Below are positions 30,738 through 63,706 of a DNA stretch of 64,000 nucleotides, in pieces. Every line of letters starts with the position of its first letter. Position 1 is the stretch's first letter. A model generated the notes under the pieces. It worked only from the letters and a program-made list of their open reading frames with translations. It was not told the origin of the DNA and searched no databases. The position numbers were made by a program, and so were the translations under genes. The stretch comes from Candidatus Eiseniibacteriota bacterium (lineage in GTDB: Bacteria > Eisenbacteria > RBG-16-71-46 > SZUA-252). The DNA is taken from positions 6,360-70,359 of the forward strand of contig DASTKG010000052.1 of NCBI GenBank assembly GCA_035716005.1, in the 5' to 3' direction.

Positions 30738-32019
30738 GGCGCGGGCCGCCGCGGCGGGCCTCGCGCTCCTCCTCCTAGCGCTCGCCGGCGCTCCGCGCGA
30801 GGCGGGAGCCCAGTCCGACGTGCGGATCGGCGTTCAGGCCTCGGGATCGAACAAGTCGCCGCTCCTCCTCGGCACGTTCGTCGCCGGAAGCGGAGCGGGG
30901 CGCGCGGCGACCCAGGCGCACGACGTGGTGCGAAGCGACTTCGATCTCTCCGGAATCTTCACCGTGCGGGAGGTGCCGGAGCTCGACGGAACGCTCACCC
31001 CGAATCCGGGCCTCTCCGGCTCGGTGCGGGTCGAAGGAAGGGTCGATGCCGACGGGGGCGGCTTCAAGCTGACCGGCGAAGCCTTCGATCTCGGCACGGC
31101 CGAATCGGTCTTCCGGCGCACCTACACGTTCGTCCCCGCGGCGGGCCGCGCCACGGCCCACCGCTTCGTGGACGACGTCATCGAGGCGCTCACCGGCGAG
31201 CGGGGCATCTGCGAGACGCAGATCGCCTTCGTCCGCCAGTCCGGGAAGATGAAGGAGATCTGGGTGATGGACTACGACGGCGAGAATCAGCGGCAGCTGA
31301 CGCACGATCGGAGCATCGCCATCTCCCCCACGTGGGCTCCGTGGGGCACCGAGATCGCCTTCACCACGTTCAAGCGCGGCAATCCCGATCTCTACCTCTT
31401 CGATCTCCGGCGCGGGGCGTCGTATCCCTTCTCGACCAGGCCGGGACTCAACACGGCGCCCTCCTATTCGCCGGACGGGAAGTGGATCGCCTGCACGCTC
31501 TCGCGGGACGGGAACGCGGAGGTCTACCTCGTCAGCCGGGACGCGCAGACGGCGAAGCGCCTCACCCGGAACCCGCGCATCGACTCCTCGCCCTGTTTCA
31601 GCCCGACGGGACGCGACATCGTCTTCACGTCCGACCGCTCCGGCTCCCCGCAGCTCTACGTGATGGACACCGAGGGCGTGAACCAGCGCCTCCTCACGAT
31701 GGAAGGGAAGTACAACGATTCGCCGCAGTGGTCGCCCAAAGGGGACAAGATCGTCTACGCGGCGCGGCACGACGGGATCTTCGACATCGTGGTCATCGAG
31801 TCGAACGGCCAGAATCCGATCCAGGTCACGTCGGACGCCGGGCACAACGAGAACCCGCGCTGGTCGGCGGACGGCCGGAAGATCATCTTCTCGAGCAGCC
31901 GGAGCGGCCGCCGGCAGATCTACATGATGAATCTCGACGGAAGCGACGTCGTTCAGCTGACGCGAACGGACGAAAGCTACAATCCGGCCGCGGGGCCGAG
32001 ACCCCGCCGGAAGGGATGA
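30715..32019 (+). CDS. tolB: Tol-Pal system beta-propeller protein TolB
   Basis: Signal peptide, TolB N-domain and repeated PD40 motifs (SPDGKWIA, SPTGRDIVFTSDRSG, SPKGDKIVYAA, SADGRKIIFSS). TTG start overlaps the upstream gene. Confidence 0.9.
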   Translation: MASNSSSRARAAAAGLALLLLALAGAPREAGAQSDVRIGVQASGSNKSPLLLGTFVAGSGAGRAATQAHDVVRSDFDLSGIFTVREVPELDGTLTPNPGLSGSVRVEGRVDADGGGFKLTGEAFDLGTAESVFRRTYTFVPAAGRATAHRFVDDVIEALTGERGICETQIAFVRQSGKMKEIWVMDYDGENQRQLTHDRSIAISPTWAPWGTEIAFTTFKRGNPDLYLFDLRRGASYPFSTRPGLNTAPSYSPDGKWIACTLSRDGNAEVYLVSRDAQTAKRLTRNPRIDSSPCFSPTGRDIVFTSDRSGSPQLYVMDTEGVNQRLLTMEGKYNDSPQWSPKGDKIVYAARHDGIFDIVVIESNGQNPIQVTSDAGHNENPRWSADGRKIIFSSSRSGRRQIYMMNLDGSDVVQLTRTDESYNPAAGPRPRRKG

Positions 32020-36816: not shown

Positions 36817-38157
36817 ATGAAGTCGCTGCATGGCCTTTTGGCGGGCGCCCTCCTGCTTGTGGCGGTCGCCGGCTGTTCCGAGGATTCGAAAACCGTCAAG
36901 GGCACGGGGTCGTACGCCCCGATCATCACCGGCCTCAAGAACGCGACCGGCGAGCCCGCGATTCGCGGCATTCCGAACGATCTCCAAGTCATCGTCACGA
37001 ACGTCAACGCCCTTCCGCTGACGGTCCACTGGGCCGCCACGGCGGGAGTCTTCTCCGACTCCACCACGCTCGACGCCGTCTGGACGCCCCCCGACACGGT
37101 CGGCACGTACAGCATCACCGTCTCCGTGGAGGCGAGCGACGCGACGCAGTACTTCTTCAAGACGACGACCTTCAGCGTCTACGTCGACAATCTCTACGAG
37201 CGCTGGACCAAGACCGACGCCATTCAGTTCGATCCGGCTCCCACCACGAGCGGCGCTCTCGTCTACGCGGAAATCCGCAACAACGTGACGGGCGAAGGCG
37301 ACGTCTATCGAGTCAGCTCGCCGATGGGCGGGGCCGAACAGATCTCCACCAGCTTCTACCGGGTGTCGTCGCCGACGCCCCGCGGGGACGAGCAGCAGAT
37401 CGCCTTCGCCGGCCGGCGCCGCTCCAGCGATTCCACGTCGATCTGGCTCGTTCCGTGGTCGGGCGCCGACACGCTCGGCGCGACGAAGCTGAGCCAGGCG
37501 AACACGCAGTTCCAGCGATTCCTCGCGCATCCGAGATTCGCCTGGAACGGCGGCTTCCTCATGTACGCCAGCGATTCGAATCTCGTCGGCTTCCCGAAGC
37601 TCTGGTACCGCGACGTCATCAACCCGGCCGCGCCGGTTCCCTTCATGAGCGTCGCCAACAACTCGAATCTCGTCCTCGACTCGTACCTGCCGGCGAATTG
37701 GGGCCCGGGCGGGTCGAACGTGGCGGCGCCCGAGTCGGTCGTCACGCAATCGTTCGAACTGTTCAACAACGTGGGGCAGACCGCGCGGGGCGCGTTCAAG
37801 TTCAAGACGCTCCTCTTCGGGCAGACGCCGCCGACCAGCGATCAGGCCTGGATCGCGGACACGACGTTCGCGGAGCCCGACTGGTCCTCCGACGGCAAGT
37901 ACATCGTCTTCTCGAGACGCGACCCGGCGGCGAGCGATCGCGACATCTGGATCGTCGCGACCAACGCCACGAGTCTCGCCGAAGCCAAACAGGTCACTCG
38001 GGGCCCCGCGGACGATTTCCACCCGCGGTTCTCGAAGGACGGAAACACCATCTACTTCGTCTCGAATCGCCAGGATCGCTACGGGCTGAACGGCCTCTTC
38101 CTCACGGAGAGGCGCGGCACCAACCTCTGGAGCGTCCGCCGATTCGATTTACCGTAG
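36817..38157 (+). CDS. Lipoprotein with Ig-like and PD40/TolB-like beta-propeller repeats
   Basis: Lipobox LVAVAGC. PD40-like motifs (WSSDGKYIVFSRRD, FSKDGNTIYFVSNRQD). RBS is AAAGGAG. Confidence 0.7.
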   Translation: MKSLHGLLAGALLLVAVAGCSEDSKTVKGTGSYAPIITGLKNATGEPAIRGIPNDLQVIVTNVNALPLTVHWAATAGVFSDSTTLDAVWTPPDTVGTYSITVSVEASDATQYFFKTTTFSVYVDNLYERWTKTDAIQFDPAPTTSGALVYAEIRNNVTGEGDVYRVSSPMGGAEQISTSFYRVSSPTPRGDEQQIAFAGRRRSSDSTSIWLVPWSGADTLGATKLSQANTQFQRFLAHPRFAWNGGFLMYASDSNLVGFPKLWYRDVINPAAPVPFMSVANNSNLVLDSYLPANWGPGGSNVAAPESVVTQSFELFNNVGQTARGAFKFKTLLFGQTPPTSDQAWIADTTFAEPDWSSDGKYIVFSRRDPAASDRDIWIVATNATSLAEAKQVTRGPADDFHPRFSKDGNTIYFVSNRQDRYGLNGLFLTERRGTNLWSVRRFDLP

Positions 38158-50040: not shown

Positions 50041-52156
50041 GCGCCTCCTGCTCGAGATCGGCTGCGAGGAGCTGCCGGCGTCGTTCGTCGGGCCGGCCCT
50101 CGAGGAGCTGGAAGCGCTGGCGCGGGCGGGGCTCGCGGAAGCCCGTCTCTCGTTCGGAGCCGTTCGCGTCCTCGGCACGCCGCGCCGTCTGGCGCTTCTC
50201 GTCGAGGGGCTCGCCGAGCGCCAGGAGGACCGGACGCGGGAAGTGCTCGGCCCGGCCGTCCGCGTGGCCTACGACGCGAAGGGCGCTCCCACGAACGCCG
50301 CGGCGGGCTTCGCGAAGGGGGCCGGGGTTCCGGTGGAGTCGCTCGAGCGGGCCACGACGCCGAAGGGGGAGTACCTCATGGCGCGCGTGCACGACGTGGG
50401 GGAACCGTCGGCCAAGGTCCTGCCCGCGCTCCTCGTCTCCTGGATCACGGGAATTCACTTTCCGAAGACGATGCACTGGAACGCCACCGGGCGCTTCGCG
50501 CGTCCTGTCCGCTGGCTCGTCTCGCTCCTCGACGGGGATCTCCTCCCGCTGGAGTGTTTCGGAGTCGCCGCCGGCACCCGGTCGAGAGGGCACCGGACGC
50601 TCGCCCCGGGATGGGTCGAGATCGGGCGCCCCGAGCGCTACGTCGACGCTCTCCGCGACGCGGGGGTCGTCGTCGATCCCGCCGAGCGGCGACGCCGGAT
50701 CGAGGAGGAGCTGGCGAGCGCCGTGGTGCCGATCGGCGGGCGCGCGGTGGAGGACGCCGAGCTCCTCGACGAGGTGACGCAGCTCGTCGAGTGGCCCGAA
50801 GCGGTGGTCGGCTCGTTCGACTCGAAATACCTCCAGCTCCCGCGGCCGGTCGTCGTGACCGCCATGCGCGCCCATCAGCGCTACTTCGCCGTGGAGCGCC
50901 CCGACGGCTCGCTCCTCGGGAATTTCGTCATGATCCGGAGCGGCCGCGGCGACGGGGCCGACCAGGTGCGCCGCGGAACGCAGGCCGTCCTTCGAGCGCG
51001 GCTCGAGGACGCCCGGTTCTACTGGGAGAACGATCTGAAGGGCGGGCTCGAATCGAAGCTGGAGACACTCAAGGGAATCGTCTGGCACGAGAAGCTCGGG
51101 TCGATCTACGACCGCACGCAGCGTCTCGGATTTCTCGTCGACGACCTGGCCCGATCGCTCGCGCCGAACGCCCGCGCCGCCGCCTCCCGCGCCGCGCGGC
51201 TCTGCAAGGCCGATCTCGCGACCGAGATGGTCCGCTCGGGCAAGGAGTTCGCCACGCTCCAGGGGATCGTGGGCGCCGAGTACGCGGCGGCGACCGGCGA
51301 GCCCGAGGGCGTGGTCCGGGCGATTCGCGAGCACTACCTCCCGCAGGGGCCTTCCGACCCGCTTCCCGCGACCGTGGAGGGGACGCTCCTGAGTCTGGCC
51401 GATCGGATCGAGGCGATCGTCGGCGGGCTCAGGGCCGGCCTCGAGGTGACGGGCTCGCAGGACCCGTACGGGCTTCGCCGCGCGGGGAACGGGGTCGTGC
51501 GGATTCTCCTCGAGAAGCAGCTCCGTCTCGACGTGCTGGAAGTCGCGTCCCGACTCTCGGCGTACTTTGAGAAGTCGGGCGTCCCGGTCGACCCCAAGGC
51601 GGGCGACCTGGTCGCCTTCTGGGCCCAGCGGCTCGAGAGCGCGCTGGAGGAGCAGGGGGTGACCCACGACACGGCGGCGGCGGTTCTGGCCGTCCGTCCC
51701 GGGGATCCGCTCGACGTCCTGGCGCGGGCCCGCGCGATCGACGAGATCCGCCGGAGCGAGGACTTCGAGGGCCTCATGGTCGGCTACCGGCGGGCCGCGA
51801 ATCTCCTCCGCACGGCCAAACCGGGCGACATTTCCGGCTCGGGGTCGCCGCTGGCCGAGCGCGCCGAGAATTTCGGGGAGAAAGTGGAGGCCGATCTCCA
51901 CCTCGAGACGAAGATGGCGAGGCAAGCGGTGGAGACGCTCCTCCAGGGCGACGCGCCCGATTATCCCAAGGCGCTTCGGATCCTCCTCGGCCTCCGACCG
52001 CCGATTGACGGATTCTTCGACGGGGTGATGGTTATGGTAGACGACACCGTCGCTCGTCGGCGTCGCCTCGGACTCCTCGAAGAGGTCCGGCAGACGTTTC
52101 TACGAATAGCGGACTTCTCCGCCCTCCCGGCGGGCGCAGGTCAAAAAGCTACTTGA
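50033..52156 (+). CDS. glyS: Glycine--tRNA ligase beta subunit
   Basis: GlyS N-terminus ([12 protein letters not shown]). 707 aa. GTG overlaps the glyQ stop. Confidence 0.93.
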
Positions 52157-52181
52157 CACTAGCCGGTTTCTGACCTATACT
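52153..52181 (+). promoter_or_regulatory. Perfect-consensus sigma70 promoter TTGACA-N17-TATACT with upstream A5 tract
   Basis: -35 is at 52153..52158 and overlaps the glyS stop codon. -10 is at 52176..52181. An AAAAA tract lies 5 nt upstream of the -35. GC content drops sharply downstream. Confidence 0.65.
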
Positions 52182-52187
52182 GGGCGG

Positions 52188-52627
52188 GTAAAGGAGATAG
52201 AATAATCTGTCTCCAGACAGCCGCAACCGCTAGAACCGATTGATATTACAGCGAATGCACGACACCCGATGGGCTGACGGTGCGGCTCGCTTTGTCTTTG
52301 GGGTTACTCGCGTTCGGCGCGTTTTCGCTTATTCGAGAGATTGATGGTAAGGGGGTGAGAGGACAGAGCGCTCTCTGGCTACCACTCGATTTTTGAAGAA
52401 GTTATGGAATGTGGATCGATTCGACGAAATTCAAAAGAGAGAAAGGAGGTCGGTAGGATTTCTCGTGAAGGGTAAGTCCATCAGCGCTCGAACTGTCCCG
52501 AACGAGCGGACGAACCCGACGCAGCACTCCAGACTCAACTAGAATTACCGAATCCCGTGTCGTGAAGTTCCAGTTAGTCCTCCCGATCTAGGGCTCCGAG
52601 TCAGGAAACACTAAGGAGGATGTGACA
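52188..52627 (+). other. Long (~440 nt) low-GC 5' leader / possible small RNA upstream of the 1248-aa gene
   Basis: Lies between the consensus promoter and the AAGGAGGA RBS. It begins with an 8-bp stem-loop at 52194..52215 (GGAGAUAG-aauaau-CUGUCUCC). A short CGCG-uucgg-CGCG hairpin followed by UUUU sits at 52311..52327. There is no convincing ORF. Confidence 0.4.
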
Positions 52628-55600
52628 ATGCGGAAAACCTTGTTCGCCTTGCTGGGTCTCGTGGCGATCGGATCGTGGGCCGTCCCGGCCCTCGCCGGTG
52701 TCGCTTTCAACGACCCGCCCAAGGCGTTCGCGCCGATTCCGCTCGAGAATCGTGCGGGCGCTATCGGAGCAATGGCAAAGAGCGGCACCAATTACCAGGC
52801 CACGCTGAGCGGCACGCTCATCAAGCAGGCGTCGGCCACCACCTCGTGGTTCCTCTATCCGGGCGCTTGCACCGACCGTGCGAACAACACGTGGGTGCCT
52901 CGTACCGCGGTCCAGGCCGACTCGCTCAACTCGTACCTCGTCGGTTCGCAGGGCGGATACGGGCGTGCGGATCAGTCGCTTTCCGAGAAGCTGTTCCATA
53001 TCGTTAGCTCGGGCCTGCCGGTCGGCCAGAAGCCGAACGGCATCAACGGCACGAACGCGATCTGGGCCGGAAAGTACGACGCGAACTGGGTGAACCCGGT
53101 CGGCTATCCGAACCTCACGAACCAGATCCTTTACATCGATCTCGAGTCGAACCGGGCGCCGATCGCGGCGAACACCGGTACGTACACGATCACGATGAAG
53201 CTGAACAGCTCCACCGAGCAGAATTACGACTTCCTGTACTTCATCGGTGGCGGCGATGCCGACGCGAACAACTTCGGCGACGAAGATCCGCTCGGCAACG
53301 ACCGCGGCGGCTTCGACCAGGTTCGCTCGACCGGATCGTTCGACGCTGCCACGCTTCAGGCCACGCTCACCGGCTCCATCATCGCCACGACCTCGGGTCT
53401 CCTGCCGTTCATCAATGGCTCGGCGGGTCCGACGATCGTGGGCGAGGGCGGTTCGCAGCCGGCGACGGTCAACCTGAACTTCCACATGACGACGGACAAC
53501 CGTGCGTTCTACATCCTCTTCACCGCCGACTGTCTCTTCTCGAGCGAAGACGGCCTCTGGCCCTTCGGCACGGGCGTGACGATCGACGACCTCACGGTGT
53601 TCGACGGCAGCGTGACCCGTAACCTCTACGTCGACCAGACGGCTGCCGGCGGCTCGGACACGGTGGGTGGCGACATCCTCGTGGCCGATCCGATCACGGC
53701 GACCGAGACGGACGGCGTGCGCATCTCGGCCCGCGTGTTCCCCGGCAAGGGCGAGCTCTGGGCCATCCAGCAGGGCAGCAGCTACACCACGTCCGACATC
53801 TGCCAGACGCAGAAGAACGCCACCACGGACCGCTTCTTCCTGGGCGTCGACCCCGTGACCAAGAACGCGCTTCCCGGCCAGTTCAACTCGGTCGTGACGT
53901 GCACGTTCGCGGTGCCGGCCGGCACGGCCGACATCACGGCGCTCTGGGGCGAGTACCTGAACCTGCCGCGTACCACGGGCTACGTTCAGTACTCGGAGTA
54001 CCGCTACTTCAAGGACGGCTCCTGGTCCAACTGGGAGAATACGGCTGCCGGCGGCGGTGTCCGCACGTCGGTGATCGACCAGTGGGTGGTTGACGGCGAT
54101 CCGCTCGCCTCGGCCGTCCAGGCCGATTCGTTCCAGGTCCGCTACAACATTCAGTGCATCACGGCGTTCGCCGCTGACCGCACGAATTGCGACAACAACA
54201 CGCAGTACGCCGTGCTCTACGACGACCTGTTCCTGCAGGTCACGACGGGCGTTCCGGCGCCGGTGTTCGGTATCTTCCCGGGTTCGGTGGCGCAGTCGAC
54301 CTTCGTCGACGGCAACATGACCGGCTTGAACTGCACCGTCACGCCGTGCTGGCCTGGCATCCGTGGTTCGGACCTCCAGACCAACCCGAACGTCGACATC
54401 GCTCGTAGCGCGGTGAAGGACAATCTCAACTCGCCGCTCGGCGACTCGCTCACGATGTCCTTCGTGACCGGTCTCCGCAAGAACGGCATGGGCATCAACT
54501 GGCACTACGGTTACGACAAGTCTGTGAACGGCGGTCTCACCGTCGCGATCACGAACGGCGCGTACAACCCGGCGTTCGATACGCCTCGGGTGATCTACCG
54601 CCTGTTCGACCCGGCCTCGAAGACCTGGAGCCCGTGGGACTCGACGTCCCTCAACGGCAACAACGTCTCCGTCGCGGGCGACACGGTCGTCATCGACTCC
54701 GAGTACCGCTTGAACTGGCCGCCGGCCGACAAGGTTGGTCTCAACCTGCCGGGCGGATTCACGATCAACGGTCAGGGCGCCTACAACAACCTGGCGTTCC
54801 TCCCGCGCGGTACGCGGATGCAGTACTACTTCAAGGCGGTCGACATCAACGGCGGCGTCAGCTACCAGTTCACGACCGATGCGCTCTCGCGCGAGGTCGA
54901 GGACCTGCCGACGCTTCCGGGCAGCGCGAACATCGCTGCTGACATCGTCGAGTTCGACGTTCTCCCGCGCGTTTATCCGGCGGGCACGGCGGGGACGCTT
55001 GCGGCGGGTCGCACCGACACGCCGGTCCTGAATCTCGACGGCGCCTACTGTGGTTGGGGCTTCGGCCAGGATCCCGTCACCGCGGCTCTCCGCGGCATGG
55101 GCGTCCGCGCCGACCGGTACCGTCCTCTCGCGGCGATCGACGAGGGTCATCTCCTCGGCGGGCACGAACTCGCCCCCGATCGTCCGTCGCGTCAGAGCAA
55201 TTACTTCCCGAATAAGGATGAGTACGGGATCAAGGATTCGCTCGCGACGTGGTACCGCATCATGATCCAGAATTCGCACACCAGCACGGTCCCGTCGATC
55301 GACGAGTCCGCGGCTCAGCTCGTTTCCGACTGGGCGGCCACGGATACCGGCGCTAACGGCGGCGATCGCTGCATCTTCTTCTCGGGCGATGACGCCTTCA
55401 ACTCGCTGACCAACTCTCCGGTCGGCGTCCCCGGCGCCCGCAAGCTCGCGCTCTCGACGGCCGTCTTCGGCGTCGCGAACGTGGTGACGCTGGCTCCGAG
55501 CGCGGCGAAGGGCTCCTGGGCGGGTACGACCGGCAATGCGTATCCGACCATCGATGACCGCTTCGCGGCTCAGGCTTCCGGTCCTGGTCTCGCGGCCCCC

Positions 55601-56374
55601 GGTTCGTTCACCTACGAAGTCGACGGTGGATGCCCCGGTCCGAACCGCTTCGATCCTCTCACCCCGACGGGCGGTGCGGTTGCTGCGGCGACCTTCCCGG
55701 TCGCGGCGGGCGTGACGGACGTCGCGGGTGTGGCCAAGGCGAGCGAGCTCGACAACACGCCCGACCTCGACCAGACCAAGGCCCTCAGCTACGGTTACTC
55801 GATCCAGTTCGTGCGTGGCACCGCGGGCGTGATTCCGCGCAACGCGGCCAACTACGTGCGTTCGGGCGTCCAGAACCGCATGCAGATTCTCTACAAGTTC
55901 CTGACGGGTTGCCGCGGCGCTCGTGGTGCTGGCTCGCTCTGCTGGCCGTGCCCGACGGATGCCAACCTGATCAGCAACTGGCTCACGGCGCCGGGCTTCA
56001 ACACGGCGACCTACGGCCCGCTCTATCCGATTCAGGACTTCACGAAGGCGACGGGTGTCGAGGTCGAGGAAGCGTCCGCGGCTCCGCGGGTCAACCGCAT
56101 CTTCGGCAACAGCCCGAACCCCTTCAACCCGATGACCAAGATCTCGTTCAGTGCCGCGCAGGCGGGCAAGGTCACGATCCGTATCTTCAACGTGGCCGGC
56201 CAGCTCGTTCGCACCCTCGAGACCAAGGTTGAGACGCCCGGAACCGCGAGCGTCTACTGGGATGGCATGTCGGATCGCAACGTCAAGTCGGGCAGCGGCG
56301 TGTACTTCTACAAGGCCACGTTCGCCAACGGCACCACGTTGACGGCCGATCGCAGCATGGTGCTCGTGAAGTAA
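52628..56374 (+). CDS. Large secreted protein of unknown function with a T9SS-type (Por_Secre_tail-like) C-terminal sorting domain
   Basis: Signal peptide (LFALLGLVAIGSWAVPALAG). About 1150 aa with no recognised catalytic motif. The final ~85 aa match the T9SS C-terminal-domain pattern (NSPNPFNPMTKISFS..GKVTIRIFNVAGQLVRTL.....SGVYFYKA....MVLVK). The strong RBS AAGGAGGA lies 7 nt before the ATG. Confidence 0.8.
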   Translation: MRKTLFALLGLVAIGSWAVPALAGVAFNDPPKAFAPIPLENRAGAIGAMAKSGTNYQATLSGTLIKQASATTSWFLYPGACTDRANNTWVPRTAVQADSLNSYLVGSQGGYGRADQSLSEKLFHIVSSGLPVGQKPNGINGTNAIWAGKYDANWVNPVGYPNLTNQILYIDLESNRAPIAANTGTYTITMKLNSSTEQNYDFLYFIGGGDADANNFGDEDPLGNDRGGFDQVRSTGSFDAATLQATLTGSIIATTSGLLPFINGSAGPTIVGEGGSQPATVNLNFHMTTDNRAFYILFTADCLFSSEDGLWPFGTGVTIDDLTVFDGSVTRNLYVDQTAAGGSDTVGGDILVADPITATETDGVRISARVFPGKGELWAIQQGSSYTTSDICQTQKNATTDRFFLGVDPVTKNALPGQFNSVVTCTFAVPAGTADITALWGEYLNLPRTTGYVQYSEYRYFKDGSWSNWENTAAGGGVRTSVIDQWVVDGDPLASAVQADSFQVRYNIQCITAFAADRTNCDNNTQYAVLYDDLFLQVTTGVPAPVFGIFPGSVAQSTFVDGNMTGLNCTVTPCWPGIRGSDLQTNPNVDIARSAVKDNLNSPLGDSLTMSFVTGLRKNGMGINWHYGYDKSVNGGLTVAITNGAYNPAFDTPRVIYRLFDPASKTWSPWDSTSLNGNNVSVAGDTVVIDSEYRLNWPPADKVGLNLPGGFTINGQGAYNNLAFLPRGTRMQYYFKAVDINGGVSYQFTTDALSREVEDLPTLPGSANIAADIVEFDVLPRVYPAGTAGTLAAGRTDTPVLNLDGAYCGWGFGQDPVTAALRGMGVRADRYRPLAAIDEGHLLGGHELAPDRPSRQSNYFPNKDEYGIKDSLATWYRIMIQNSHTSTVPSIDESAAQLVSDWAATDTGANGGDRCIFFSGDDAFNSLTNSPVGVPGARKLALSTAVFGVANVVTLAPSAAKGSWAGTTGNAYPTIDDRFAAQASGPGLAAPGSFTYEVDGGCPGPNRFDPLTPTGGAVAAATFPVAAGVTDVAGVAKASELDNTPDLDQTKALSYGYSIQFVRGTAGVIPRNAANYVRSGVQNRMQILYKFLTGCRGARGAGSLCWPCPTDANLISNWLTAPGFNTATYGPLYPIQDFTKATGVEVEEASAAPRVNRIFGNSPNPFNPMTKISFSAAQAGKVTIRIFNVAGQLVRTLETKVETPGTASVYWDGMSDRNVKSGSGVYFYKATFANGTTLTADRSMVLVK

Positions 56375-56396
56375 GCGAGTTCCAGCAGCAGCGGAA

Positions 56397-56431
56397 GGGC
56401 CGCCAGGTTCGCCTGGCGGCCCTTTTCGTTT
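56397..56431 (+). terminator. Rho-independent terminator
   Basis: GGGCCGCCAGG-uucg-CCUGGCGGCCC followed by UUUUCGUUU, 23 nt after the stop codon. Confidence 0.8.
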
Positions 56432-56557
56432 GCCCCCGGTGGGCCTGAATGGCACACTTGGCGGCGCCGGGGCCGCGCCGCCTGGATCGCCCCATGCCCC
56501 GCCCCTCGAACCGGCCCGATCGGCTGAACTGGGCCTTCCGGACCAGGTAAAATCGGT

Positions 56558-56655: not shown

Positions 56656-58212
56656 ATGCCCCAGCGCGTTGCGTGGCGCACCGCCGCCCGTCCCGTTGTG
56701 ATCCTTGTCGGGCTCGCCGCATTGCTGGCGGCCTGCGCCAAAGAACCAGTCGCCGTCGATCGGAATCGCCCTCCGCGCACCTATCTCGTGTCGGCGCCGC
56801 CGGAGAGCGGTTCGTTCTCCTATCGCATTCATCTCTACTGGCGCGGCGAGGATCCGGACGGCTACGTGGTCGGATACCAGTGGGCGTGGGACGATTCGAG
56901 CATCAACGCGTTCCACTTCACCACGAAGACGGACACGATCTTCGAGCTCGCCGTGAACGACTCGGCCACCATCACCGGCGGCAACACCAACCAGCCGCCA
57001 GGGACGTCGAAGGGCCATACGTTCTTCATCCGCGCGGTGGACAATCTCGGCAAGCCCGATCCGAACCTGGCCGTATTCAACAGGCGCATCATCATCTCCA
57101 CGACGGTGAAGCCCACGGTGGCGTTCAAGCCCCCGCTCCCGGGCCCGGGGCCCGGCGTCGACTCGCTCTGCGACGGGCAGCCCTTCGAAGTATGCTGGGG
57201 CGGTAGCGATCCGGACGGGAGCATTCTCGGATACAAGTTCGACGTCGGCTCCTACAGCAGCCCGATCGTCCGGGATTCCTGCGTCAGCTTCAACGACGCG
57301 AACAATCCGAACTCCATCGCGCTGGCGAGCGGCCTCTACACGCTGACGGTCCAGTCGGTCGACAACGCCTACGCGCTGAGCGATCCCGGCGCGAGCAAGT
57401 TCCTCTTCGTCGTCAACCGCGATCCCGTCACCTGGTTCAAGGACGCGTCGGGCGGACGGGGCATCCCGGTCGGCTACTACATCGCGCCGTATCTCCGCGG
57501 GCAGCTCGTGCCGCCGACGATCAGGCAGTTCGCCCCCGGCGACACGGTTCCGTATCGGTCCACCGTCTGGTGGCAGTGGGACGGGGAGGACAATGCGTGC
57601 GACAGCCCGAGCGGCATCAACGCGTTTTCGCTCTCCGGGCAGGTCTATCACAACGGCAACGTGCCCTACATCATCGGCTTCCTGCCCGAAATCGCGCCCG
57701 GGATTCCGTTCAAGACGAACGATCCGGTCGTGCTGGGGCAGAACAATTTCTCCAACCTGATCCTCGACTCCCTCGACGCGGGGAACGGCATTCTCATGCG
57801 AGTCCGCGCGCGGGACCTCTCGAACCGCATCTCGGGGCTCCAGTACTCCGGGGAGTTCACGTTCAACTGCAACTTCCCGCCCAAGCTGAAGAACTTCCGA
57901 GTCTGCGACGCCTGCTCGCTCGGACAGAAGTGGAAGCGCTTCGAGTGGGACGCCGAGGATGAGGAGGACGGATTCCCGGCCGAGGCCACGCTCTACCTGG
58001 AGAACGGCCTCGACACGAGGACGGTTCTCGGCCCGAATTTCTTCTACATCCCCGAACGAGTGTTCCGGGACTTCTCCCCGACGAATCCGCACGTCGCCGA
58101 GGTGCGGGTCAAGGATCGCGCCGGCTATGCGTCCGCGGAACGCCTGAAAGTGACGTTCAACGTCGATTACGTAGACACATTGTGCAATTTCCCCAACGCA
58201 CCTTGTCCCTAG
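56656..58212 (+). CDS. Lipoprotein with repeated W-x-G-x-D-P-D-G Ig-like modules (paralog A)
   Basis: Lipobox LLAACA. At least four repeats are present (HLYWRGEDPDGYVVGYQW; EVCWGGSDPDGSILGYKF; VWWQWDGEDNACDSPSG; FEWDAEDEEDGF). Y_Y_Y-like motifs appear as well (LYTLTVQSVDN, LFVVNRDPVTWF). Confidence 0.75.
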   Translation: MPQRVAWRTAARPVVILVGLAALLAACAKEPVAVDRNRPPRTYLVSAPPESGSFSYRIHLYWRGEDPDGYVVGYQWAWDDSSINAFHFTTKTDTIFELAVNDSATITGGNTNQPPGTSKGHTFFIRAVDNLGKPDPNLAVFNRRIIISTTVKPTVAFKPPLPGPGPGVDSLCDGQPFEVCWGGSDPDGSILGYKFDVGSYSSPIVRDSCVSFNDANNPNSIALASGLYTLTVQSVDNAYALSDPGASKFLFVVNRDPVTWFKDASGGRGIPVGYYIAPYLRGQLVPPTIRQFAPGDTVPYRSTVWWQWDGEDNACDSPSGINAFSLSGQVYHNGNVPYIIGFLPEIAPGIPFKTNDPVVLGQNNFSNLILDSLDAGNGILMRVRARDLSNRISGLQYSGEFTFNCNFPPKLKNFRVCDACSLGQKWKRFEWDAEDEEDGFPAEATLYLENGLDTRTVLGPNFFYIPERVFRDFSPTNPHVAEVRVKDRAGYASAERLKVTFNVDYVDTLCNFPNAPCP

Positions 58213-58248
58213 TGCGACCACGCCGAGGATAGAGGAGTAAACGATTCG

Positions 58249-60528
58249 ATGATCCGGAACATCCTGAAGCTGGTCCCAGTCCTGCTCTTCGCGGCCGTCG
58301 CGGCTCTCTTCGCGGGTTGCTCGAAGGACAATACCGCGGGCCCGACTCCGGTGAAGCAGAACCCGGAGACCGAGCTGACGTACGCGCCGCTGCAGGGAGA
58401 CACCGCGGGGTATCGCGTCCGCCTCTATTGGAACGGCTACGATCGCGACGGAGAGGTGGTTCGGTTCCGCTACGCGATCGACTCCGACACGCTGGAGCCC
58501 GATCCCACGAAGTGGAAATCGACCACCGCCAAGGACACGACGCTGCTCCTTCTCGTCGACCCGGTGAAGGAGATCCGTGGGCACGTCTTCTGGGTCTCCG
58601 CGGAGGACAACGAGGGCCGGATCGATCCGACGCCCGCGAAGCGGTTCTTCTCCACGAAGACGATTCCGCCGACCTCGGAGATCCTCCGGGGACCGTCGGC
58701 GTTCAACGCGATCATCGGCCCGAACTTCACGTATGAATGGGAGGGGATCGATCCCGACGGCGGCGAGACGGGCGGCCGCGCTCCCTGCGATTCGTTCGAA
58801 TACCTGTTGCTTCTGATCGGGGCCGTGAACGATCCGAACACGCCGCCGACGCATCCGCCTCTCCCCCAGTTCAATCAGACGTTCTACGTCAATCTGATCA
58901 ACGCGAGCGTGAACGACACGCTCGTGGCGCCTCACGGAGACTGGCGCTGGACCGGAATCCGGGGAACCCGCCTGCGGGTCCGGAACGCGAGCCCCGGCGA
59001 GTACGTCTTCGCCCTGCGCGCGGTCGACCTGGCCGGCGCGCGTGAGAAGAACATCGCCTTCGTGCGGAACATCCGGCACTTCACGGTCACGAACCGGAAC
59101 CCCGGGCCGACGCTGACCATCGAGGCAAGCGTGCTGACGACGCCTCTGCCGACGGCGACGGGACCGGAGGATTTCCCGCGGCGCGAGATCCAGATCTTCG
59201 AAGGCGAGATCATCTCCTTCTCCTGGTCGGCGTCGGCCGACGCCTATGGCGGCAGCATCGTCGGGTTCACGTACGCTCTCGACGACACGGCGTCGTTCCC
59301 CGGCCTCGACGTCAGGAATATCGGCGTGACCTACCGGCCCCAGGATCTGGGCGTGGGCCTCCACTACCTTTTCGTGCGGGTCTTCGACGACGGCGGTCTG
59401 AGAACGAACGCCATCATCCCGTTCCGGATCGTTCATCCCACGTTCAAGGACCCGCCGGGTCCGTTGAACCCGCCGTCGTACCTCTACGTGGATGACGCCC
59501 TTTCTCCGGGCGTGAACAACAGGAATCGCTTCTTCAACTACCCGTCCGACGCCGAAGAGGACGAGTGGATGCGGATCAACGTCCTGACACCCATTTCTCT
59601 GGCCACCGGCGTCGGCAAGTCCGACTGGGACACGTTCGGCAAAGGCGACGAGGGCGGGGGAGGATCCCGAATTCAGCCCCTCCCGGCCGATCTGGCGCCC
59701 TACCGCGTCGTGATCTGGAGCGTCGACCACAACAACCAGGTCGGGAATCCGACGGCGCTCTGGCTGACCCTGGTCGGCGGGGCCTACAGCGATCTGGGCG
59801 GATACCTGCGCGCGGGCGGAACCCTGGTTCTCTACGGCTTCTCGGTCGCCAGCAGCATCGTACAGCCGACCACGGCTCTGACGGCGAACTTCTCACGAGG
59901 AATCTGCTTCGCGTTCCCGGCGAACACCCTCGGCTACAACCAGACGTTCTTCCCCCGGTCGATGATGGGGATCGACGGCGCCAGAGCCGCCGACGAAGGG
60001 TTGCGGAGGCAGGGCGCGAAGGACTTCCTGGAGGCGCGGGTGACCCCGCAGGGCGCCGCCCTCGGATATCAGACGGCGGTCGTCGACACGGGCGCGGGCA
60101 ACAAGTGGGACGGCAAGCTCGTGGCCGGAGATCCCGAGTCGTCCTGGGCTCCGGGCCTCCCGCGTATCGAAGGCTGGAAGATGGCCTCGCTCTTCAACTG
60201 CGAGCCGAGCCAAGGGCTCCTTCGCAAGGAGGACGCGAGCAGGCCGATCTCGACGCCTCTCTACACGTACCACGGGGCCCCGATCGGGATCTACATGACG
60301 GGGGCTCAGTCGCCGCGCGAGAACCTGATCGTCGGCGTCCAGGTGCAGGCGCACGACGTCGGCGGCTTCGGTGGCGGGACGGTCACACAGGGTTCCCTGG
60401 GCGTCATCGGACGCGTCGTGGTGCTCGGGTTCCCGATGTACTTCCTGAAGGATGCCCAGGCGACGTCGATCATGCTGACCGCCTTCAACTACGTGAACGG
60501 GTCGCCGACGCTGCCCCTGATGCCATAG
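58249..60528 (+). CDS. Lipoprotein with W-x-G-x-D-x-D-G modules (paralog B, 759 aa)
   Basis: Lipobox LFAGCS. The N-terminal repeats are homologous to the upstream gene (YRVRLYWNGYDRDGEVVRFRY; FTYEWEGIDPDGG). The C-terminal half is unique. The RBS GAGGAG 36 bp after the upstream stop suggests co-transcription. Confidence 0.75.
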   Translation: MIRNILKLVPVLLFAAVAALFAGCSKDNTAGPTPVKQNPETELTYAPLQGDTAGYRVRLYWNGYDRDGEVVRFRYAIDSDTLEPDPTKWKSTTAKDTTLLLLVDPVKEIRGHVFWVSAEDNEGRIDPTPAKRFFSTKTIPPTSEILRGPSAFNAIIGPNFTYEWEGIDPDGGETGGRAPCDSFEYLLLLIGAVNDPNTPPTHPPLPQFNQTFYVNLINASVNDTLVAPHGDWRWTGIRGTRLRVRNASPGEYVFALRAVDLAGAREKNIAFVRNIRHFTVTNRNPGPTLTIEASVLTTPLPTATGPEDFPRREIQIFEGEIISFSWSASADAYGGSIVGFTYALDDTASFPGLDVRNIGVTYRPQDLGVGLHYLFVRVFDDGGLRTNAIIPFRIVHPTFKDPPGPLNPPSYLYVDDALSPGVNNRNRFFNYPSDAEEDEWMRINVLTPISLATGVGKSDWDTFGKGDEGGGGSRIQPLPADLAPYRVVIWSVDHNNQVGNPTALWLTLVGGAYSDLGGYLRAGGTLVLYGFSVASSIVQPTTALTANFSRGICFAFPANTLGYNQTFFPRSMMGIDGARAADEGLRRQGAKDFLEARVTPQGAALGYQTAVVDTGAGNKWDGKLVAGDPESSWAPGLPRIEGWKMASLFNCEPSQGLLRKEDASRPISTPLYTYHGAPIGIYMTGAQSPRENLIVGVQVQAHDVGGFGGGTVTQGSLGVIGRVVVLGFPMYFLKDAQATSIMLTAFNYVNGSPTLPLMP

Positions 60529-60561
60529 GCCGCTCGGCCGCCTTCCCGCGGCACGCGACGG

Positions 60562-60602
60562 GGCCGCGTTCACCTCACCGGTGGACGCGGCCTCTCGCTT
60601 TT
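60562..60602 (+). terminator. Rho-independent terminator candidate
   Basis: GGCCGCG...CGCGGCC stem with an inner CACCGGTG palindrome, followed by UCUCGCUUUUCGG. Confidence 0.5.
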
Positions 60603-60739: not shown

Positions 60740-61115
60740 ATGCACGTCTGGGCGACGGACTCTCAGGACGCGAAGCGGACGCACGAGGGCGTGGTCCGGG
60801 CGTTCGAGCACTTCGGCGGCGTGGTGCGCGAAGTGCCGGTGGACAACCAGAAGTGCGCGCCGCTCGATGATCGTCCCGGGAACGGCCGCGGTTCAACGAG
60901 CGGTTCCTCGACCTCGGCCACCACTACGCTACGTGATGCGGAACTTCTTCGTTCGCTACCGCGAGTTCGAGAGCTACGCCCACCTGAATCAGCTCCTCGA
61001 GCGGTGGTTGAGAGAGGAGGCCGATCCCCGGATCCACGGCACCGTGCGGGAAGTGGTGGCGGCGCGGTTTCTCCGGGAGGCGCCGACGCTCACGCCGCCC
61101 CCTGGAGACCTATGA
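60740..61115 (+). pseudogene. istA: istA (IS21 transposase) C-terminal fragment, multiple frameshifts and internal deletion
   Basis: See the mobile-element entry. The segments are in frames 1, 0 and 2 in turn, with an in-frame stop after HHYAT. Confidence 0.7.
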
Positions 61116-61127
61116 GGAGGTGGCGAC

Positions 61128-61632
61128 GTGGAATTGACCACCTTCCTCGAACGGATGAAGCGGGAGCATCCGGCCGCGCGGATCGACAGCGTCTGCGAGC
61201 AGGCCGCGGGACAGGACCTCGACTACAAGAGGTTCCTCGCCCAGGCCCTGGTGACGGAATGCCAGGGCCGATTCCGTCGGGGGATCGAGGCCCGCGGGAA
61301 GCTGGCGCGGTTCCCCTGGATCAAGGCCCCTCGACCAGTTCGACTTCGACTTCCAGCCGAGCCTCGATCGGAAGATCGTGCGCGAGCTCGCCTGGCTCTC
61401 CGTCGTCGAGCGGGCGCACAACGTGGTGCTCCTCGGCCCGCCGGGCGTCGGCAAGACGGACCTGGCCATCTCGCTGGGGATGAACGCGGTCGAGGCAGGC
61501 TACTCTGTCCTGTTCCTCACCCTGGAGCAATTGATGACCCGGCTCACGCGGGCTCGGCAGGAGAACCGGCTCGAGCGCGCGCTTCAGCAGCATGTGTATC
61601 CCAGAGTGCCGATCCTCGACGAGCTCGGCTAG
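61128..61632 (+). pseudogene. istB: istB (IS21 helper ATPase) fragment, frameshift near 61325 and truncation after ILDELG
   Basis: Walker A GPPGVGKT is in a different frame from the N-terminal MELTTFLERMK segment. The C-terminal ~80 aa are missing. Confidence 0.7.
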
Positions 61633-61849: not shown

Positions 61850-63706
61850 TTACTTCGCCATCACCATCTTGACGACGTCGGACGTGATCTCGCTGCCCTT
61901 GCCGTCGCCGACCGAAGCCTTCGCGAAGTAGATACCCGAAGCAGCCTTCGCGCCGGTGCTGGTCGAACCATCCCACGCAGCCTCGTGCGAACCGGTCCCG
62001 TAGTTGCCGCTGGCGACGGTCTTCACGAGCTCGCCGCGCACGTTGTAGACGCGGACGTTCACGAAGCCGGGCTTGGCGACCGAGAAGCGGATCTTGGTCA
62101 CGGGGTTGAAGGGATTCGGCGAGTTCTGCTCGAGACGAACCACCTGGCCGGCCGCGTTGTTGGACGAGAGCTTGAGGTAGCCGTAGCCCTGGAACTGGCG
62201 GCCGCGGGTGCTCGAGTAAGCGGTAACCGGGCAGATGACGGTCTGATTGACGAGACCGAGAGCGACAAGGCGAGCCTCGACCGTCTTACGGTTGAGCTGC
62301 ATGATCGTCTCGTATTCCCCGCCGTTGACCTGGTTCGTCATCGCGGCGAACGGCGCACCGTTCACGGCCGAGGTCGGTCCAGGCTGGCCGAGGAAGGTCG
62401 GGCTGATGATGATCGAGTTGCGGTTCTTGATGCCCTCGTGTCCGGCCGGAATGCCGATGAAGCCCTTGTCGTCGACGTCGGCGACGGCCACGAATCCGGC
62501 GGCCTGCGTCTCGGCGGGCATGCTGATCGTCACGTTGAGATTCCCGCCATTGCTGCCCAAGTTGAGGGTCGTCGGGCTGATCGCGACGCCGAGCGGGAGA
62601 GCCGGGAAGCAGTTGTTCGCGCTGGCACGCCAGATGCCGAGACCGAAGTTGGCGCCCTGGCTGGAGCAGAGGAACAGGTTGTACGGGTTGCCGTCGAGGT
62701 TGAAGTTCGTCAGGGACGAGACATCCGGATCGGCGTCGCCGCGATTGTCGAAGAAGATGTCGCACTTCGACTGCGTCGCGAGGTCGAGCTTGAAGATGTC
62801 GGTGTTGTTGTTGATGTCCTCGCCCTGCGGAGCGTCATAGAAGATCGACGCGCCGTCGGACGACCACGACGGGTTGTTGTGCGAAATCGAGGCGAAATTC
62901 GTCTCGGCGAGGTAGAACGTGCCCGGAGCGTTGAGGTCGGCGATCTCGATCACGTTGCGGCCGAACTTGTTGGTCGCGTACGCGATCAGATTGTTGGGAC
63001 CCCACGTCGGGTTGATTTCCGACCGGGCGTCGTTCGTGGTGGCGCGCGCCGGGACGCCGACCGTGGCGGTCGGAACGTCGACCGAGACGTACCAGATGTC
63101 GGTCGAAGGACCCGCCGCGTTCGACGCGTAGCAGAGCGCCGTGCCGTCCGGCTTCCAATCGGGGGTGCGATTGATGACGCCGGGGGCGGCCGGGACGACG
63201 AGCAGGGGCGAACCGACCGGGGTCGTCGCGGCGAGCGTGGTCGTTCCGGTCATGTACTCCTGGACGTAGATCGCCGACTGCGTGATCTGGCCGTCCGTCT
63301 GCACGTACGCGAGGTACTTGCCGTTCGGGCTCCACGCCGGATCCGTGTAGGAGACCATGGCGGCGGGATCAAGGAGCATCGGACGACGAGCGTCCATAAT
63401 GTCGGCCACCGAGAAGCCGATCTGAGCGGCATTCTGGCCGAGCCAGATCGAACGAACGGTTTCGCTGCCGACCACGGTGCTGCGGGTGGAGAACGAGTAC
63501 CAGCGCTCGGTCTGCGCATGGCCGCCGTTCGCCCGGATATTGGCGTTGCGGAGCGACGGCTGCTCGCAGCCGTTCGCGAGGCCTGTGTTGAACGGTGCAC
63601 CATTCGTGAGGGGATCCCAGACCCCACGAAGGGCCGCACTCGCATGTACCGGCACGAGCGCGAAGAAGAGCGCCAGCAGCACGGTCACACCTAGCAGTTT
63701 CTTCAT
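61850..63706 (-). CDS. Secreted PD40/TolB-like beta-propeller protein with T9SS-type C-terminal sorting domain
   Basis: Signal peptide (MKKLLGVTVLLALFFALVPVHASA). PD40-like repeats (YTDPAWSPNGKYLAYV; NRTPDWKPDGTALCYASN; EINPTWGPNNLIAYATN; HNNPSWSSDGASIFYDA). The C-terminal ~90 aa match the T9SS C-terminal-domain pattern (NSPNPFNPVTKIRFSV..PGFVNVRVYNVRGELVKTV....SGIYFAKA....MVMAK). Confidence 0.85.
   Translation of the reverse strand: MKKLLGVTVLLALFFALVPVHASAALRGVWDPLTNGAPFNTGLANGCEQPSLRNANIRANGGHAQTERWYSFSTRSTVVGSETVRSIWLGQNAAQIGFSVADIMDARRPMLLDPAAMVSYTDPAWSPNGKYLAYVQTDGQITQSAIYVQEYMTGTTTLAATTPVGSPLLVVPAAPGVINRTPDWKPDGTALCYASNAAGPSTDIWYVSVDVPTATVGVPARATTNDARSEINPTWGPNNLIAYATNKFGRNVIEIADLNAPGTFYLAETNFASISHNNPSWSSDGASIFYDAPQGEDINNNTDIFKLDLATQSKCDIFFDNRGDADPDVSSLTNFNLDGNPYNLFLCSSQGANFGLGIWRASANNCFPALPLGVAISPTTLNLGSNGGNLNVTISMPAETQAAGFVAVADVDDKGFIGIPAGHEGIKNRNSIIISPTFLGQPGPTSAVNGAPFAAMTNQVNGGEYETIMQLNRKTVEARLVALGLVNQTVICPVTAYSSTRGRQFQGYGYLKLSSNNAAGQVVRLEQNSPNPFNPVTKIRFSVAKPGFVNVRVYNVRGELVKTVASGNYGTGSHEAAWDGSTSTGAKAASGIYFAKASVGDGKGSEITSDVVKMVMAK

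Follow-up and report, generated by a model that had tools for sequence, protein, structure and literature searches.

A conserved gene cluster places two predicted lipoproteins with Ig-like domains beside proteins carrying type IX secretion sorting domains in Eisenbacteria and other lineages

Type IX secretion (T9SS) has, to our knowledge, been studied almost solely in Bacteroidota, where the cargo is held on the cell surface by anionic LPS (type A C-terminal domains, CTDs) or by PorP-like barrels (type B CTDs). T9SS-type CTD sequences are abundant in uncultured Eisenbacteria, Latescibacterota, and Krumholzibacteria, and we know of nothing on how cargo is retained in these phyla. For PorP/SprF-like proteins and type B CTD cargo, it is established that the cognate partner is encoded next to its cargo; in Porphyromonas gingivalis PorP-PG1035 and Flavobacterium johnsoniae SprF-SprB, the partner keeps the substrate at the surface or targets it there, and several such paralogous pairs occur per genome (PMC9143113, PMC12618676).

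The gene pair described here, A and B, lies in a 64,000-nucleotide stretch of a Candidatus Eiseniibacteriota genome (GCA_035716005.1, contig DASTKG010000052.1, positions 6,360 to 70,359; hereafter the window). Both open reading frames are exactly where the first-pass annotation had placed them (Table 1), and their GC3 (0.87-0.88) is on par with that of the other real genes of the window. Co-transcription of the pair, which had been asserted from the 36-nt gap (58213-58248) and its ribosome-binding site, is plausible because both elements are present and strong terminator-like hairpins stand ahead of A and behind B. The hairpin between the upstream gene, BIG, and A (-35.6 kcal/mol, z -4.8; equally good folding in 0/200 shuffles) makes it probable that BIG and A-B are on separate transcripts. 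Such a strong hairpin at this position counts against a role of A and B in anchoring the BIG product.

Table 1. Features of the BIG-A-B locus (window positions)
Feature	Position	Strand	Description
Sigma-70-like promoter match upstream of BIG	52153..52181	+	TTGACA-17-TATACT, 11/12; consensus match only
BIG, conserved first gene of the cluster	52622..56374	+	1250-aa secreted protein; T9SS C-terminal sorting domain aa ~1165-1240
Terminator-like hairpin 3' of BIG	56388..56433	+	11-bp GC stem, TTCG loop, T-rich tail
Lipoprotein A	56656..58212	+	518 aa; signal peptide and lipobox (Cys27), four FN3/PKD-like beta-sandwich domains
A signal peptide and lipobox LLAAC	56656..56736	+	Cys27 codon 56734-56736; followed by conserved A-K-D/E-P
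A domain 1 (aa 41-149)	56776..57102	+	W62-R-G-E-D-P-D-G; homologous to B domain 1
A domain 2 (aa 154-253)	57115..57414	+	W181-G-G-S-D-P-D-G
A domain 3 (aa 258-405)	57427..57870	+	Enlarged sandwich; degenerate W308-D-G-E-D-N; partial profile match, aa 339-409
A domain 4 (aa 410-501)	57883..58158	+	Degenerate W431-D-A-E-D-E-E-D-G; predicted fold pLDDT >90
Ribosome-binding site GAGGAG	58232..58237	+	In A-B spacer, 11 nt ahead of the ATG of B
Lipoprotein B	58249..60528	+	759 aa; signal peptide and lipobox (Cys24), three FN3/PKD-like domains, C-terminal glutamine-amidotransferase-like alpha/beta domain
B domain 1 (aa 40-137)	58366..58659	+	W61-N-G-Y-D-R-D-G
B domain 2 (aa 142-280)	58672..59088	+	W164-E-G-I-D-P-D-G; large insertion including helix aa 210-219
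B domain 3 (aa 288-395)	59110..59433	+	Degenerate W326-S-A-S-A-D-A-Y-G-G
B alpha/beta domain (aa 410-750)	59476..60498	+	ThuA-like / class-I GATase-like fold; from AlphaFold model, structural neighbours, and ortholog alignment
B C-terminal pentapeptide S-P-T-L-P	60502..60516	+	Invariant, 46/46 orthologs
Terminator-like hairpin 3' of B	60560..60594	+	15-bp stem; -40.1 kcal/mol, z -5.3
TolB/PD40-like beta-propeller protein with T9SS CTD	61850..63706	-	618 aa; convergent with B; kept downstream in Eisenbacteria

As the first-pass annotation had read them, both proteins open with a signal peptide ending in a lipobox of the form [LVI][ASTVI][GAS]C (LLAAC27 in A, LFAGC24 in B), and both are predicted to be lipidated. 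The Cys is invariant in 49 A and 46 B orthologs (~95 in all) and is also found in most of the 38 distant relatives examined. It is followed by A-K-D/N/E-P in A orthologs (K in 46/46) and by [ASG]-K-D in B orthologs (K in 21 of the 25 parsed). In Bacteroidetes, the lipoprotein export signal is K-(D/E)2 or Q-A-(D/E)2 just past the lipid Cys (PMC5080379). The A/S/G-K-D of A and B resembles this signal, which is not defined for these phyla, without matching it, having one acidic residue instead of two, and may be taken as a weak hint of surface export.

The two proteins are homologous over their N-terminal regions (A13-218 and B10-199; 31% identity, E 3e-22; profile-profile probability 99.3%) and are built of beta-sandwiches in AlphaFold models of the monomers, in keeping with their description as tandem paralogs made of a repeated Ig-like module. 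The models give the four modules expected in A; B has three instead of two, plus an alpha/beta domain of ~350 aa, and the modules measure 92-148 aa, not ~90 aa. Each is predicted to fold as a seven-strand beta-sandwich that superimposes on FN3 or PKD domains of known structure. The strict motif W.G.D.DG occurs twice per protein (A62, A181, B61, and B164), and at least one match arose in only 16 of 20000 shuffles. Degenerate copies were recognized by eye near A308 (WDGEDN), A431 (WDAEDEEDG), and B326 (WSASADAYGG), and in the models the motif, canonical or degenerate, forms a hairpin in each beta-sandwich. Searches for internal repeats found a periodicity that is uneven but real. In module-against-module hhalign comparisons, the probabilities were 99% for A1-B1, 89% for A1-A2, 88% for A2-B1, 80% for A1-B3, and 50% for A3-B1, while A4 and B2 were not significant. 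An iterated profile seeded with B domain 1 recovered domains 1 and 2 and part of domain 3 of A as well as domains 1 and 3 of B from the window proteins (E<1e-3). Neither method detected a repeat in the window copy of A domain 4, despite its confidently predicted fold. The likeness to Y_Y_Y domains that had been suggested survives at the level of a generic Ig/E-set fold: a Pfam search of A and B returned no model at E<=1, Y_Y_Y included, neither protein reached the gathering score of PF07495, and the sole sequence link to Y_Y_Y/Big_13 proteins is a generic last-strand motif at B profile positions 110-168. The segment LFVVNRDPVTWF sits across the boundary between domains 2 and 3 of A, comprising the last strand of the former, the linker, and the first strand of the latter.

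The C-terminal ~400 aa of B had been left unassigned and unrelated to the rest. In the model, this region is predicted to adopt a flavodoxin-like, class-I glutamine-amidotransferase-like fold of the ThuA/GIFT kind, its best structural neighbours being ThuA-like proteins and non-catalytic GIFT or trimerisation domains with 7-16% identity. The likeness is structural only: B matched no sequence model in Pfam or NCBIfam, ThuA-like (PF06283) and GIFT/ABC_transp_aux (PF09822) included, and the B profile found no match among PDB sequences. Nor did A match any Pfam or NCBIfam model; a clear assignment to a well-characterised enzyme family would have spoken against the original description. Invariant in the head of B orthologs are VDD414-416, D461, W490, D493, R521, GGT523-525, C553, C651, E661, Q700, and H702; in the wider family, only the VDD, W, and GG/G positions remain so. 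Many of the invariant residues are polar and could equally mark an enzyme site, which counts against an anchoring function.

The pair sits, as stated before, between two genes with T9SS CTDs. The CTD of BIG is matched by FlgD_ig, Por_Secre_tail, and TIGR04183, and no known domain was found in the remainder of the protein. The downstream PD40 gene has an uncertain functional link to A and B, the weaker of the two; it is convergent, and IS21 debris lies between it and B in this genome. The proposed surface complex or accessory-cargo relationship holds up better for BIG, the candidate partner supported by synteny in at least three lineages, than for the downstream gene. A and B show no match to T9SS sorting domains (TIGR04183, PF18962, or FlgD_ig-like), and therefore they are not cargo themselves. 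No sequence relationship between A or B and BIG was detectable, an observation that counts against anchoring.

The gene order was then compared across genomes. Wherever BIG was found in Eisenbacteria (18 loci), it lies directly upstream of A in the order BIG > A > B(-B), with 44-80% protein identity, and as in the window the genes adjoin on the same strand. Within Eisenbacteria, this synteny is weak evidence by itself because the conserved block also holds the unrelated housekeeping genes recO-glyQ-glyS. However, a T9SS CTD protein of ~1000-1300 aa precedes A and B not only in every Eisenbacteria locus with enough flank but also in other lineages, which were surveyed by HMM maps of 76 metagenome loci and of Latescibacterota and Krumholzibacteria contigs (names as the sources give them). 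The BIG-A-B order recurred in ~15 metagenome loci outside Eisenbacteria that had sufficient upstream flank, and the ~1050-aa CTD proteins heading the clusters in other phyla are homologous to BIG from end to end (hhalign 100%, E 1e-46). One lineage has the order BIG homolog (CTD) > A-like > B-like > ~440-aa CTD protein > B-like > S8 subtilase-CTD; another has repeated pairs of an ~840-aa CTD protein and a B-like protein, often with overlapping stop and start codons. The conserved placement of these lipoproteins beside T9SS cargo genes extends to at least three lineages, and A and B form the lipoprotein half of a conserved cluster with CTD proteins. Outside Eisenbacteria, a same-strand CTD gene adjoins 62 of the 151 testable sides of A/B-like genes, against a background of ~1 CTD gene per 10 kb, a count that overstates independence since the loci are related. 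CTD genes are common in these genomes, which counts against the anchoring of cargo by A and B. Some B-like paralogs (loci L018, L022, L028, and L038) have no CTD gene beside them; this too counts against it.

From these features we infer, tentatively and at somewhat less than an even chance, that A and B are anchored in a membrane and, as partners of co-encoded T9SS substrates, hold or organize these at the cell surface. Each would be attached to the outer membrane through its N-terminal lipid, A projecting as a rod of four FN3/PKD-like beta-sandwiches and B as a rod of three tipped by the ~350-aa head. BIG, presumably exported via the T9SS, would be bound through the distal domains of A and B and thereby held or organized as a surface complex. 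The best candidates for the contact are the conserved pocket in the B head at the C-terminal strand ends (VDD, D461, W490, and D493) and the SPTLP tail. A wider proposition, which we regard as doubtful, is that in FCB-group phyla other than Bacteroidota the A/B lipoproteins make up a new class of cognate anchor for T9SS substrates: once secreted, every CTD protein (BIG, the ~440-aa c440, the ~840-aa c840, and the subtilase) would be caught by an Ig-stalked lipoprotein of its own. Such capture would replace or supplement the covalent linkage to anionic LPS and would build up a modular layer of enzyme or adhesin complexes on the surface.

The same gene pairing would be expected if A and B were secretion-specificity or escort factors, lipoprotein counterparts of the PorV or PorP/SprF shuttles, whose cognate CTD protein would need them for export and meet them in the periplasm or at the translocon. 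Cognate shuttle genes beside cargo genes are documented (PMC12618676), and behind each CTD partner family (BIG, c440, c840, and S8) comes a lipoprotein paralog of its own. We consider this unlikely, since known shuttles are outer-membrane beta-barrels rather than lipoproteins with soluble domains, and a long multi-domain stalk with a distal head better suits a protein projecting from the surface. Moreover, the CTDs found here belong to type A (TIGR04183/Por_Secre_tail), all of which use the general shuttle PorV in Bacteroidota (PMC12618676).

Alternatively, A and B could act on their own as surface adhesins or as ligand-binding lipoproteins resembling SusE/F or SGBPs, adjacent to CTD genes only through a shared cell-surface regulon. 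Their architecture of lipid anchor, tandem Ig-like domains, and distal domain would fit, Foldseek matches include adhesin, FN3, and S-layer arrays and the Bacteroides SGBP-B lipoprotein 6e57, and sugar binding has been proposed for GIFT/ThuA-like domains. However, the cluster has no SusC/SusD-like or glycoside-hydrolase genes, and co-regulation alone poorly explains a CTD pairing that occurs in three configurations, including translationally coupled overlaps; this explanation is quite improbable.

That B is an enzyme is very unlikely; its head would then be a working hydrolase or transferase from the GATase1/DJ-1/ThuA superfamily, with the cell envelope or the neighbouring secreted proteins as its target. 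Many invariant polar residues (D415, D416, D461, D493, R521, E661, Q700, and H702) do group at the C-terminal strand ends, and Q-A-H-D at 700-703 recalls the His-Glu segment, Q-F-H-P-E, of class I amidotransferases. However, the residue at the nucleophile elbow is not conserved, B fits no enzyme model in Pfam or NCBIfam, the structures nearest to the head are ThuA-like proteins or non-catalytic domains with only 7-16% identity, and few head positions persist in the wider family. In particular, a catalytic class I glutamine amidotransferase, with its conserved elbow Cys after strand 4 and a His-Glu pair, was considered for the head and rejected: position 532 is S, Q, T, N, A, or D among the 46 orthologs, and an acidic residue (D) follows the invariant H702 in only 35 of them. 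The head no longer has a catalytic nucleophile; because that position is not conserved, it is probably a binding or assembly module. Equally improbable is the absence of any functional link, with gene order simply inherited among related genomes rich in CTD proteins and lipoproteins, for which the recO-glyQ-glyS block and the appreciable background of CTD genes speak, since the pairing survives among entirely different flanking genes, with different CTD partner families and in overlapping reading frames.

The cluster joins CTD proteins to a dedicated family of lipoproteins, is kept across phyla, and contains no annotated family; it yields a testable hypothesis and defines at least three protein families (BIG, A, and B) absent from Pfam and NCBIfam. 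Even if the link were only syntenic, it would provide domain annotation for several hundred "hypothetical" proteins. In comparison with known systems, A and B, as putative cargo-specific partners, share with PorP/SprF a gene position beside a T9SS substrate gene, a likeness of gene arrangement only. PorP/SprF proteins are outer-membrane beta-barrels with type B CTD cargo, whereas A and B are predicted lipoproteins with type A-like CTD neighbours (TIGR04183/FlgD_ig), and their AlphaFold models contain only soluble FN3-like beta-sandwich and alpha/beta domains and no PorP/SprF-family barrel. Like SusE/SusF and SGBP-B of Bacteroidota, A and B combine an N-terminal lipid anchor, a tandem Ig-like spacer, and a distal functional domain; however, the distal domain of the former is a carbohydrate-binding beta-sandwich, the B head is a GATase1-like alpha/beta domain, and A and B share neither SusC/D context nor sequence relationship with them. 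The non-catalytic ThuA-like and class I GATase-like domains (1t0b, 4jqs, and 3rht; GIFT of IFT52, OST48/WBP1, and GldG; the GH42 trimerisation domain) differ from the similarly folded B head, which at 7-16% identity is ~110 residues bigger through insertions, carries an invariant Cys pair (C553 and C651) and the SPTLP tail, and is joined to the FN3-like stalk of a lipoprotein. The modules differ from Y_Y_Y (PF07495), Big_13 (PF19077), PKD, and FN3 domains in the W-x-G-x-D-x-D-G hairpin followed by [YF]-x-[YW]-x-x-D, which is particular to the A/B family. Taken together, the A and B families are new, while their folds and this sort of gene pairing are already known.

The two lipoprotein genes A and B, with A upstream of B, correspond to VFS09_04205 and VFS09_04210 in NCBI, respectively (each 100% identical), and their ORF coordinates are those of the first-pass annotation. 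Their GC3 (0.87-0.88) is typical for real genes in this high-GC window (~69%), which derives from a Candidatus Eisenbacteria metagenome-assembled genome. Each signal peptide closes with a lipobox (A, LLAAC27; B, LFAGC24), and the lipobox Cys is invariant in both ortholog alignments (49 sequences for A, 46 for B). Because the 36-nt spacer carries GAGGAG 11 nt upstream of the ATG of B and strong hairpins flank the pair, A and B appear to be transcribed together as a two-gene unit. The residues following the lipid-bearing Cys (A/S/G-K-D) are near to K-(D/E)2, the surface-export signal of Bacteroidetes lipoproteins (PMC5080379), and fall short of it, so that surface exposure of A and B is something we infer. 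A near-consensus sigma-70-type promoter match (TTGACA-17-TATACT, 11/12) overlaps the stop codon of glyS, upstream of BIG, a large protein with a T9SS C-terminal sorting domain (CTD). Housekeeping genes fill the remaining upstream part of the window (DnaK, ClpB, a sigma-54 activator, aspartokinase, PhoH, and a 7TM-HD protein), with two PD40 proteins and a protein containing three VanZ-like stretches that is unusually large for the VanZ-like family.

Coordinates of features in the window and, in the last two lines, in the numbered comparison loci
Feature	Position	Details
VanZ-like protein	10708-13419 (-)	903 aa
PD40 protein	30715-32016	
PD40 protein	36817-38154	
Promoter match	52153-52181	
BIG	52622-56374	1250 aa, T9SS CTD; 13 invariant cysteines (17 orthologs)
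Hairpin + T-rich tail, just upstream of A	56388-56433	-35.6 kcal/mol, z -4.8
A	56656-58212	518 aa
B	58249-60528	759 aa
S-P-T-L-P of B	60502-60516	aa 752-756
Hairpin + T-rich tail, just downstream of B	60560-60594	inside fold of -40.1 kcal/mol, z -5.3
IS21 debris	60741-61632	
IstA-like stretch	60741-61112	resembles IstA C-terminus by eye; Pfam without match
Truncated IstB fragment	61378-61629	Pfam IstB_IS21, E 4.6e-26, profile positions 81-163 of 238
PD40-propeller + CTD gene	61850-63706 (-)	618 aa
~840-aa CTD proteins, L040	7443-9989, 12398-14899	
~840-aa CTD protein, L037	12279-14798	

The first-pass annotation described A and B as built from tandem repeat modules, and this was borne out by paralogy, a shared motif, structure models, and internal profile matches. 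A13-218 aligned with B10-199 at 31% identity (E 3e-22; profile-profile probability 99.3%). A strict W-x-G-x-D-x-D-G motif occurs twice per protein (A62, A181, B61, and B164), while only 16 of 20000 shuffles of both sequences gave at least one match. AlphaFold2 models built from family alignments (pLDDT 89.4 for B and 79.4 for A) contained four beta-sandwich domains in A (aa 41-149, 154-253, 258-405, and 410-501) and three in B (aa 40-137, 142-280, and 288-395). The module had been put at ~90 aa with two copies in B, but the model of B shows three and the modelled lengths are 92-148 aa. In domain 1 of B, the motif lies between predicted strands (aa 56-64 and 70-77) and is read from the model as a hairpin turn; degenerate copies are present in other domains (WDGEDN and WDAEDEEDG in A, WSASADAYGG in B). 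Module-versus-module hhalign comparison linked A1 to B1 (99%), A1 to A2 (89%), A2 to B1 (88%), A1 to B3 (80%), and A3 to B1 (50%), and was not significant for A4 and B2. An iterated profile seeded by domain 1 of B recovered domains 1 and 2 and part of domain 3 of A and domains 1 and 3 of B among the window proteins, and reached domain 4 of A in some orthologs. Judged from these sequence comparisons, the periodicity is genuine but differs in strength between modules.

Scanned against Pfam and NCBIfam, A and B gave no match at E<=1; PDB sequences searched with the B profile gave none, and Foldseek comparison of the models with the PDB found generic tandem-Ig arrays only. Run against the full database, the B profile matched 3233 proteins at E<=1e-3. 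The giant multi-match proteins in this set are Big_13/Y_Y_Y Ig arrays that always align to B profile positions ~110-168, and they were rejected as members of the B family because they share with B only a generic last-strand motif (G-x-H/Y-x-F-x-V-x-A-x-D-x-x-G) and a P-rich linker. The earlier term "Y_Y_Y-like" therefore holds only in the sense of an Ig-like, E-set fold; as Y_Y_Y proper it fails, Pfam having no match at the same threshold. A and B each have >200 full-length relatives (46-87% identity), nearly all from Eisenbacteria bins and all annotated as "hypothetical". A further ~100 cluster representatives of 670-1000 aa align with B from its lipobox to midway through its C-terminal alpha/beta domain, and B-like proteins of this kind carry Candidatus Latescibacterota and Krumholzibacteria as source names. 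Of 38 distant B relatives examined, most have the lipobox Cys, and most have the head's C-terminal helix and the N-x-x-P-x-V-x-L-T at the start of domain 1.

This C-terminal head of B (aa 410-750) has a class-I GATase-like/ThuA-like fold. Its structural neighbours (7-16% identity) include domains within GH42 beta-galactosidase chains, which we take to be the trimerisation domains of those enzymes. Residue 532, the would-be nucleophile at the elbow after strand 4, is S/Q/T/N/A/D across B orthologs, which excludes an amidotransferase-type mechanism, and an active amidotransferase was accordingly rejected. Invariant residues lie at the C-terminal ends of strands 1-3 (VDD414-416, D461, W490, and D493) and elsewhere in the head (R521, GGT523-525, the Cys pair C553/C651, E661, Q700, and H702); in the wider family, only the VDD, Trp, and Gly positions stay invariant. 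We read these residues as a probable conserved binding or assembly surface, not a catalytic site. All 46 aligned orthologs share the S-P-T-L-P near the C-terminus without change; it forms the very end in about half of them, the others running up to ~3 residues further, and a distant relative, P0288, terminates in EEVPTLP. This pentapeptide may serve as a tail for recognition or cap the structure.

Co-occurrence with T9SS cargo genes, which the first-pass annotation had suggested as a check, recurs in Eisenbacteria and in other lineages. In Eisenbacteria, the order glyS > BIG > A > B, at times with a second B, was seen in 18/18 loci where BIG was found, with the convergent PD40-propeller + CTD gene downstream wherever the flank was available. 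Since this synteny takes in housekeeping genes, it proves little on its own. The pairing of BIG or other CTD genes with the lipoproteins recurs, however, where the surrounding genes differ. Using family HMMs, we mapped 76 metagenome loci (from a Latescibacterota-type B alignment) and named Latescibacterota and Krumholzibacteria contigs. The common order was BIG-like (CTD) > A-like (610-770 aa) > B-like > ~440-aa CTD protein > B-like > subtilase-CTD (a Peptidase_S8 match), and the ~1050-aa heading proteins are full-length BIG homologs (hhalign 100%, E 1e-46, 934 columns). BIG is followed directly by B in some loci (L055, L058). In L037, L040, L095, L099, L101, L103, and L109, ~840-aa CTD proteins alternate with B-like genes, and stop and start codons often overlap in this lineage. 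These proteins always adjoin B-like genes, have no Pfam match besides the CTD, and carry DDDGDG...DED repeats that are rich in Asp and recall the calcium-binding type 3 repeats of thrombospondin. Among A/B-like genes from outside Eisenbacteria, 62 of the 151 sides that could be tested abut a same-strand CTD gene, against a background of ~1 CTD gene per 10 kb; because the loci are phylogenetically non-independent, we give the count as a description and do not treat it as a formal test.

Outside its CTD, BIG has no recognisable domain in Pfam or NCBIfam, and a PDB profile search with its family matched the CTD only. BLASTP and hhalign detected no relationship of BIG to A, B, or their modules. 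With a broader profile, hhalign gave a collinear, non-significant match of the B head to BIG ~800-1100 (probability 7%, P 0.005), on the basis of which BIG may hold the same fold. Downstream of B, IS21 debris precedes the conserved TolB/PD40-like propeller + CTD gene, which likewise lies convergent to B in L004, L006, L012, L014, L017, L021, L024, L025, L029, and L033. The gene after it in other Eisenbacteria is divergently oriented and encodes a CTD protein of 330-480 aa; here it would fall past the end of the window.

Neither A nor B matched a CTD in Pfam or NCBIfam, and both were thus rejected as T9SS cargo themselves. Their genes repeatedly adjoin those for T9SS substrates, which belong to several unrelated families. 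From this pairing, their shape, and the precedent of PorP/SprF-like proteins, we tentatively propose for A and B a role as membrane-anchored partners, which would capture the co-encoded secreted proteins and organise them at the cell surface. That they are instead escort or secretion-specificity factors seems unlikely, and a role as autonomous adhesins or ligand binders is more doubtful still. The many invariant head residues would suit B as an enzyme of some other kind, but with the elbow residue variable we regard this as improbable. Mere inherited synteny as the source of the A/B-CTD pairing is equally hard to credit, because the pattern recurs in differing surroundings. A PUL-like glycan system was rejected, SusC/D or glycoside-hydrolase genes being absent among the neighbours.

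Searches of the accessible literature found no report of T9SS in Eisenbacteria or Latescibacteria. Pfam, NCBIfam, and the searchable literature contain no description of the BIG, A, and B families, of a lipoprotein in the partner role, or of occurrence outside Bacteroidota. With function inferred by comparison only, the A/B cluster offers a testable entry into T9SS-cargo retention in uncultured FCB-group phyla. The folds themselves are already known, as is the logic of pairing a cargo with a partner. In their lipid anchor, Ig-like stalk, and distal head, A and B resemble the projecting envelope proteins SusE/F and SGBP-B, and PorP/SprF-like partners, which bind cognate type B CTD cargo and set its surface location (PMC9143113, PMC12618676), are a precedent for such gene pairing beside a substrate.
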